Origin: Octopus sinensis
Taxonomy: Eukaryota
Assembly (NCBI RefSeq): GCF_006345805.1
Contig: NC_042997.1
Span: 75,578,001-75,642,000, forward strand
Direction of reading: 5' to 3'
Length of the DNA: 64,000 bases
The notes under the pieces were generated by a model. That model was not told where the DNA came from. It did not search any database and saw only the letters and a list, made by a program, of their open reading frames with translations. A program made the translations under genes and the position numbers. Numbering within the stretch: position 1 is the first letter of the stretch; the number at the start of each line of letters is the position of its first letter. Shown here piece after piece: positions 21,195 to 21,475 of this stretch.

Positions 21195-21475
21195 ATATTC
21201 TGTTGTGTGTGGGGAGAATCACTCTCTTTTGGTGTCTTATTTGACACGCTCACCGGTGGGATTTCCACTTATTTTTTGTTTTTGTTTTCTAGAATTTTCG
21301 TTGTGTCTTGCAGCCTTTTCAATAGTCTTGACTAGTCAAGACTGTTGAGGGAGTTGCAGGGTGCGACGGGGGTTTTGGAGGGTGAAAGTGGGAAGTTGGT
21401 GGAGGTTTTACCGGTGAGTGTGTTGAGTGGTGGGGCGCTGAAGGAGGGTGGCTCTCCCCAGCCACAACAGTATAT
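21195..21475 (+). other. Long fold-back hairpin with strand-specific G-U pairing
   Basis: Centre ACT|AGT at 21333/21334; the inner 97 ungapped positions give 56 Watson-Crick, 39 G-U, 1 C-A and 1 U-U; pairing continues ~40 nt beyond a 3-nt bulge. Confidence 0.9.

Follow-up and report, generated by a model that had tools for sequence, protein, structure and literature searches.

Organization of the locus

The window, which is the whole 64,000-nucleotide stretch of Octopus sinensis DNA analysed here, carries a 331-base insertion at 21140–21470 on the plus strand, hereafter the window copy. This insertion is a fold-back, that is, an inverted pair of pseudo-LTRs, of a Penelope-like element; it is A>G-substituted on the plus strand, and both of its ends are those of its unedited siblings. 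The hairpin unit had originally been predicted to start at 21195, but the element actually begins at 21140. First, an unpaired 58-nt extension (21140–21197, plus strand) forms the antisense of the element's 3′ tail, lies outside the long duplex in the fold and is unedited, with 0 of 12 A's changed (the first of these A's sits at 21139). The left arm (21198–21333, plus strand) runs antisense to the direction of the Penelope ORF, and G stands at 9 of its 26 reference A's. The right arm (21334–21470, plus strand) is the sense pseudo-LTR without the tail, has G at 34 of 59 reference A's, and would be the 3′ part of the RNA if an RNA was edited. Finally, the 12-bp direct repeat TATATGTATATA borders the insertion on both sides (left copy 21128–21139, right copy 21471–21482, both on the plus strand) and is likely a target-site duplication. 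This reading is weakened because the surrounding DNA is low-complexity and microsatellite-like, and the repeat may be a chance match.

The host of the insertion is the TG/CA-rich part of another interspersed repeat (20929–22257, minus strand), which aligns to loci L058, L060 and L061. L058 has a single (TA)7 tract, corresponding to the empty site. Compared with L058, the host flanks show 8 A>G and 7 G>A changes on each side, that is, the DNA beside the hairpin is unedited. A larger retrocopy that included edited TG-rich flanks was rejected because of this symmetry, and 34 A>G changes counted earlier in these flanks proved to be an artefact of a misaligned microsatellite. The ratios of A>G to G>A in the 'far right' flank are mixed (27:13, 16:27 and 29:19).

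Two LINE 3′ tails in opposite orientation flank the window copy. The first (20075–20300, plus strand) is RTE-like, ends in (GAT)n and is 84% identical to the 3′ end of the LINE in the lineage-2 composite described below; the second lies at 21688–21904 on the minus strand, and the identity of the two tails to the end of the composite is within 84–86%. The original prediction had described them as hammerhead-bearing inverted repeats. They give no Rfam hammerhead match and have no CTGANGA core, and a retrozyme or hammerhead identity was rejected since the core is missing and the sequences are those of LINE tails. When paired with each other, the tails form 8 G-U and 8 A-C pairs, and because of this symmetry they are placed outside the edited RNA copy.

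Regarding the wider neighbourhood, an inverted repeat (19537–20032 and 24337–24873, 97–100% identity, about 4.4 kb apart) encloses the whole nest and looks much younger than the repeats that it encloses. An element with terminal inverted repeats of about 215 bp, which we take to be of the Tc1/mariner type, sits in the hairpin's host repeat at 22258–23852. LINE fragments, RT ORFs and (GAT)n tails in both orientations are crowded at 1132–17222, 52500–53650 and 62000–62950, and RVT_1 is found at 4963–5931 within this cluster of LINE fragments.

Hairpin geometry and stability

Pairing outward from the junction 21333/21334 over 97 ungapped positions gives 56 Watson–Crick, 39 G-U, one C-A and one U-U pair, the same composition as originally counted. 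The 39 G-U pairs comprise 29 with G in the right arm and 10 with G in the left arm. With gaps allowed, the duplex spans 21198–21470 and contains 87 Watson–Crick, 46 G-U, 2 A-C and 4 other pairs. The calculated RNA fold of 21140–21470 has an energy of −177 kcal/mol (z = −17.9), and none of 100 shuffled sequences was equally stable. For 21195–21475, the values are −170.5 on the plus strand and −81.6 on the minus strand.

The balance of G-U and A-C that had been expected of neutral inverted repeats is seen in 141 pairs from 40 segments of 10 kb chosen evenly across the genome (983 G-U and 892 A-C). The most extreme of these controls has a p value of 1.4 × 10−3, compared with 8 × 10−12 for the window hairpin (46:2). 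Five further inverted repeats within the window are also symmetric in G-U and A-C. The pattern of the window hairpin is real and beyond chance. However, the G-U:A-C ratio is weak proof by itself, because shuffling one arm of the window hairpin already yields 27 G-U and 4 A-C. Thus, the original argument that a ratio of 39:1 marks strand-specific change holds by way of the family comparison below, and little of it is carried by the ratio alone.

The window also contains, at 29376–29829 and 25179–27193, long palindromes or inverted repeats that are symmetric in G-U and A-C and were used as controls. An inverted SINE pair (L106:5383–6400) shows a mild G-U excess of 32:11 and is possibly lightly edited; this excess is not significant after 141 tests, and the locus was treated as an ordinary SINE pair.

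Family of the hairpin

The genome searched comprises 2.72 Gb, with about 30 chromosome-scale contigs. The stretch from the window returned 1,961 first-look candidates genome-wide, 40 of which were scored and 30 loci taken for comparison, and a 35-nt arm motif that tolerates A or G has 1,563 genome matches. In single-arm relatives, the left-arm sequence runs into a 3′ UTR and then into a GIY-YIG ORF on the opposite strand; the arm sequence is located downstream of this ORF in L032, L035, L036 and L138–L148. The ORFs of the relatives score above the Pfam cut-off for GIY-YIG, a CX4CXXC motif precedes the domain, and the QGAAIG and RYVDD motifs of reverse transcriptase are seen by eye in L138/L140. 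A Pfam search for RT on the partial Penelope ORF gave no match, and a PDB search with the Penelope ORF gave none. The window copy is without any ORF, and its link to RT and GIY-YIG is drawn from these relatives. Because their arm sequence continues into the 3′ UTR and the GIY-YIG ORF, the arm is identified as a pseudo-LTR from the 3′ end of a Penelope-like element that has more than 1,500 relatives, and the hairpin as its inverted form with the tail on one side only. In the available text of PMC8557442, the inverted structure of Penelope elements is a 5′-truncated inverted copy beside the pLTR, with the tail at one end and (TA)n targets. In the octopus genome, (TA)n or AT-rich flanks are present at the window copy and at 9 of the 12 siblings compared.

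A hammerhead ribozyme is common, though not invariable, in Penelope pseudo-LTRs. Rfam gave no hammerhead match in the pseudo-LTR of this family, and a scan of 19901–22300 and L036:4200–6200 for the hammerhead core, in canonical forms only, found none. The original prediction had reached a Penelope connection through hammerheads in the flanking repeats. The connection stands, as the hairpin itself is Penelope-derived, but the argument for it falls, since those repeats turned out to be LINE tails. At about position 360 of L140, on the minus strand, there is a canonical hammerhead core with a 5-bp stem II; it is beyond the tail of the Penelope copy and probably belongs to another element. In L036, a second, distinct GIY-YIG Penelope-type family in partial tandem (1071–2408 and 2633–3355) adjoins the copy of the hairpin family.

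A>G substitutions in the window copy

We compared the window copy with the majority sequence of 12 near-perfect A/T-rich hairpins (0–5 G-U pairs) among the 29 other copies; the remaining 17 copies carry 22–36 G-U pairs. The window copy differs from this reference by 43 A>G and 7 other changes. A>G affects 43 of 98 reference A's, whereas T>C affects 1 of 117 T's (p = 10−16), and the A>G changes are confined to the duplex (43/85, compared with 0/12 in the unpaired tail; p = 9 × 10−4). Both arms are changed (left 9/26, right 34/59), and the A's near the loop (0/6) and near the base of the duplex (0/9) are spared. In vitro, ADAR reaches a ceiling near half of the A's and spares the ends of a duplex. 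With regard to the sequence context, A's with a 5′ A or U are edited at 36 of 56 positions and those with a 5′ C or G at 7 of 27 (p = 0.002). The predicted depletion of 5′ G goes in the expected direction but is not significant alone (4/12, p = 0.22). An APOBEC-edited retroelement was rejected, since sense-strand G>A (C>T on the cDNA) would be expected and the window copy shows only two G>A and one C>T relative to the reference.

The family has A, and not a G-C pair, at the wobble positions, which argues against their origin by C-to-T change, and the wobbles are not common to all family copies, which argues against a selected structure; both outcomes agree with the original prediction. The circularity of choosing references with few G-U pairs is offset because, among the first 100 listed of the 1,563 motif matches, read by eye at 15 motif positions, the window copy has G at 11 and the 99 unselected others have at most three. 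Taken together, the A>G changes on one strand, in both arms and restricted to the duplex are likely the signature of ADAR hyper-editing in DNA.

The sole sibling with an identical centre junction, L180, is unedited, and 32 A>G compared with 2 G>A changes lead from it to the window copy. As the source of the window copy, L180 was rejected: the junction matches, but it belongs to a different subfamily. L188 proved to be a chance palindrome, and no source locus was found in the genome. Genomic reads agree with the assembly in the left arm, where a contig from one run corresponds to 21188–21326 with 0 differences at a depth of 12.4, the right arm lying outside this contig. The run (X1) contains 0.80 of 30 sampled words and is possibly the assembly's own sample. 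In each of four runs, no contig covered 21348–21391 or 21447–21470, a gap that carries no evidential weight.

A second lineage in a chimeric LINE composite

The second lineage (lineage 2) is a chimeric retrotransposon, present in at least 20 copies, with its own set of A>G changes on the LINE sense strand; it includes the 17 G-U-rich copies together with L073, L165 and L169. The composite is ordered as a 48-nt tandem array, transposon remnants, two MITEs, the hairpin, (TA)n(GA)n, a LINE 3′ part and a (GAT)n tail. Its 5′ ends vary from about −35 to −3056, the (GAT)n tail is present in 5 of 14 copies in the range scanned, and no clear target-site duplication was seen in the four copies examined. 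The LINE, which we take to be an RTE, contributes a C-terminal ORF piece that is 79% identical to a window ORF with Pfam RVT_1, and the MITE beside the hairpin is presumably of the mariner type.

The A>G sites were compared position by position between the window copy and lineage 2. Nineteen sites are shared, 22 are found in the window copy only, 6 in lineage 2 only and 32 in neither; the overlap (p = 0.004) is consistent with shared editing hot spots. A derivation of the window copy from lineage 2 was rejected, because the six sites carry G in lineage 2 alone and the junction and flanks differ. In lineage 2, A's with a 5′ A or U are edited at 24 of 54 positions and those with a 5′ C or G at 3 of 28 (p = 0.003); a 5′ G taken alone gives 2 of 13, which is not significant (p = 0.20), and 5 edited sites lie in the left arm compared with 21 in the right. 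Because lineage 2 is an independent second lineage, the case for an editing origin is strengthened.

L185 (G000:C3, about 48.54 Mb) contains the same nested stack with an unedited hairpin and without the LINE tail, and its arms form 6 G-U and 6 A-C pairs. L186 (G000:C22, about 14.87 Mb) has the same stack, also unedited and without the LINE tail (4 and 5 pairs, respectively). From L185 to six LINE-tailed copies, the hairpin shows 32–38 A>G against 5–7 T>C, and the adjoining MITE is symmetric (8–15 A>G, 9–16 G>A). The two loci are sisters or donors of the composite and L185 serves as a natural control; at 85–88% identity, it is a diverged sister and not necessarily the donor of lineage 2. Since its hairpin is unedited and the LINE-tailed copies are rich in A>G, the hairpin had no edits on joining the stack and acquired its G's during passage of the stack through RNA.

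Later changes were also examined within the lineage. Over 16 copies, residual non-CpG A>G in the lineage-2 duplex amounts to 46/705 compared with 23/1058 for T>C, and the MITE and LINE parts have no excess; L009 was dropped from this count as a near-duplicate, and the tree of the lineage is mostly star-like. In the upstream MITE, 5 of 21 copies carry 11–21 A>G with 0–1 T>C, in at least two patterns. From these substitution patterns, editing is read as having recurred in lineage 2. The copy-specific bursts of 11–21 A>G are seen in the MITE of about 225 bp at positions of about 1500–1730 in L160, L164, L165, L166 and L167, and in L070, on the LINE sense strand; this MITE has no obvious self-hairpin. 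The free MITE copies L170–L178 were left out because their counts included non-homologous flank.

Frequency in the genome

Searches with a two-G motif recovered the window copy, 11 copies of lineage 2 and L117, and nothing else. In a random sample, no A>G or T>C cluster occurred in 58,737 informative repeat bases, and one C>T cluster was found. Among 20 more copies on chromosomes 1 and 5, partly chosen for 1–4 motif G's, only L117 is skewed. A>G fossils of this kind are rare, and because of this their effect on the genome looks small.

L117:3847–4113 (G000:C5, about 23.467 Mb) is a third fold-back with 15 G-U and 2 A-C pairs; it is more decayed and is edited on the strand that has the tail at its 3′ end. 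The adenosine-deaminase domain PF02137 has 17 genome matches at several loci, which may represent ADAR, ADAD or ADAT genes. L191 (G000:C2502:263721–264758) is an uninterrupted full-length match to this domain with in-frame stops, a possible processed ADAR-family pseudogene.

Proposed origin and alternatives

Editing followed by reverse transcription, with insertion by Penelope and replacement in place taken jointly, is a very likely origin of the window copy. More specifically, we favour, as the probable course of events, an ADAR-edited hairpin RNA that was reverse-transcribed and inserted, likely by the Penelope machinery. The vehicle, Penelope RT, is the uncertain part of this explanation. 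First, an unedited fold-back elsewhere would be read through with the sense pseudo-LTR last, giving an A/U-rich dsRNA of about 135 bp. ADAR would deaminate about half of the A's of this dsRNA in a germ-line cell. The Penelope protein would then nick a (TA)-rich target and prime cDNA synthesis internally on the RNA, at the pseudo-LTR end that lacks the tail, inosine being copied as G. Finally, the cDNA would end in the (TA)n of the source and join the target. The right end of the window copy would thus be the tail-less initiation site of Penelope RT. In the accessible part of PMC11167929, Penelope RT nicks AT-rich DNA and initiates internally on its own RNA at two positions, one on either side of the tail. 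We favour the Penelope protein for the window copy because both a LINE tail and a carried flank are missing there; in lineage 2 the carrier would be the LINE 3′ end. The Penelope reading implies that fold-back copies can be re-mobilized as RNA, and a demonstration of fold-back RNA re-mobilized by Penelope RT was not found in the literature examined. The window copy itself is probably a functionless fossil and shows no sign of function.

The main rival is replacement in place, in which the edited hairpin cDNA replaced, by recombination, an unedited fold-back already inserted at the locus (RNA-templated gene conversion). This suits the element ends as well as a new insertion does, and accounts for the exact family ends, the direct repeat, the unedited flanks and the missing source locus. 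However, it requires each end of the conversion tract to coincide with an element end to within a few bases, or else to lie in flank that carries no informative differences, and there is no direct sign of conversion. Moreover, ordinary retrotransposition captures edits in the octopus genome, as lineage 2 shows. We consider such a replacement unlikely, and insertion of the edited RNA as a new copy is preferred.

Deamination at the DNA level is improbable. It would have been carried out either by ADAR on an RNA:DNA hybrid during Penelope insertion or by an adenine deaminase on an extruded DNA hairpin. ADAR acts on RNA:DNA hybrids, and in the hybrid version the left arm would be the cDNA strand and the right arm the reused RNA template, so that weaker editing of the DNA strand would give the lower level of the left arm (9/26) compared with the right (34/59); a cruciform that segregates at replication can also yield changes on one strand. 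However, the tail would share the hybrid, yet none of its 12 A's is changed, compared with 9/26 for the left arm (p = 0.036). The skew between the arms recurs in lineage 2 (5 compared with 21 sites) although its hairpin was inserted unedited, so this asymmetry belongs to the RNA hairpin. In addition, every A>G burst in the composite is on the LINE sense strand, as expected if RNA rather than DNA was edited.

Misincorporation by RT under unbalanced dNTP pools would produce a single type of substitution on a single strand of a retro-derived sequence, but it is largely refuted and highly implausible: the unpaired tail, the adjoining MITE and the LINE part of the same reaction are unaffected, and any error that preceded synthesis of the fold-back would now appear as a G-C pair, whereas 10 of the G's in the left arm stand opposite T within the first 97 pairs. 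Selection for a G-U-rich hairpin RNA, which the original prediction had offered as an alternative and which finds no support, is just as hard to credit as neutral drift, an origin of the wobbles from a G-C duplex by C>T decay, or an artefact of assembly. Although the plus strand still folds very stably and the right arm is outside the confirming contig, family members carry A-T pairs at the wobble positions, no other copy has the pattern of the window copy, other inverted repeats are symmetric, the contig matches 21188–21326 with 0 differences and the same kind of change is present at no fewer than 20 separate loci.

In summary, RNA carrying edits appears to have been incorporated into the octopus germ line on more than one occasion, and one assembly holds a sister locus without edits, edited copies that were amplified and later bursts of editing. 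RNA editing is treated as non-heritable. A broader proposal, which we hold tentatively and with slightly less than even confidence, is that ADAR acts as a heritable mutagen in this genome, with edits repeatedly entering DNA through at least two retrotransposon systems and chimeras ratcheting up edits with each round. If so, a three-letter scan would recover many fossils across repeat families, and these would date past ADAR activity in the cephalopod germ line and reveal a route from RNA edits to DNA. Because the lineage-2 element spread after hyper-editing, both the write-back of edits to DNA and the effect of editing on retrotransposition are directly testable.

Comparison with known systems

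The fold-back resembles Neptune-like Penelope elements with a C-terminal GIY-YIG, as described in part in PMC8557442, in the inverted pseudo-LTR, the one-sided tail and the (TA)n site, and its relatives have RT motifs and GIY-YIG. It differs from them in that the window copy has no ORF, a tail of about 58 nt rather than 30–40 nt and no canonical hammerhead core. Half of the A's in the duplex of the window copy are G, a further difference.

The changes themselves are closest to those of ADAR hyper-edited repeat RNAs, such as the palindromic Harbinger of Xenopus and the octopus hyper-editome, with which they share clustered A>G, a long near-perfect duplex and a palindromic repeat (PMC5625713, PMC9068888, in the text available). 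According to the same portions of these sources, the octopus gives one of the two strongest hyper-editing signals among the surveyed species, the other being the frog, whose palindromic repeats are strong targets, and 5′-G depletion is the strongest ADAR motif (PMC5625713); editing in cephalopods is directed at repeats (PMC9068888). In those RNAs the changes are differences between RNA and genome, whereas in the octopus hairpin they are fixed in DNA, and in lineage 2 they are amplified to at least 20 loci. For avian retroviruses RAV-1 and ALV (Felder 1994; Hajjar and Linial 1995), the account in PMC8586724, as far as available, likewise describes A>G-hyperedited RNA that was then reverse-transcribed. 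These are viral sequences of infected cells and not heritable host repeats, and that account includes neither a source locus nor repeated rounds.

Lineage 2 is similar to chimeric LINE retrotranscripts formed by template switching, since in it a read-through RNA of cellular origin is linked to the 3′ end of a LINE at (TA)n, but its cargo is hyper-edited and was re-amplified with further edits (compare PMC13174262 and PMC4476161). The full-text literature examined, chiefly open access without supplements, yielded only analogues and no ADAR-edited RNA fixed as genomic transposon copies; the supplementary lists of edited repeats of PMC5625713 and PMC4866542 might bear on this. Re-integration of edited RNA is not mentioned in the available sections of PMC5974252 and PMC9148063.

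Finally, APOBEC DNA-edited LTR retrotransposons (Knisbacher and Levanon, PMC4866542; Zaranek et al., PMC2873906) show strand-biased hypermutation that arose during retrotransposition, was fixed in the germ line and is polarized against a family reference, as in the octopus. In those elements, however, cytidine deamination of the cDNA gives G>A in vertebrates, whereas the octopus changes are A>G, restricted to a duplex and found in non-LTR-type elements of an invertebrate. In the parts of these two papers at hand, APOBEC-edited retroelements are reported absent from 19 invertebrates. The A>G fossils of the octopus would be their invertebrate counterpart, and the hairpin and lineage 2 are best read as extending the known deaminase-marked retroelements to A>G changes of the ADAR type.
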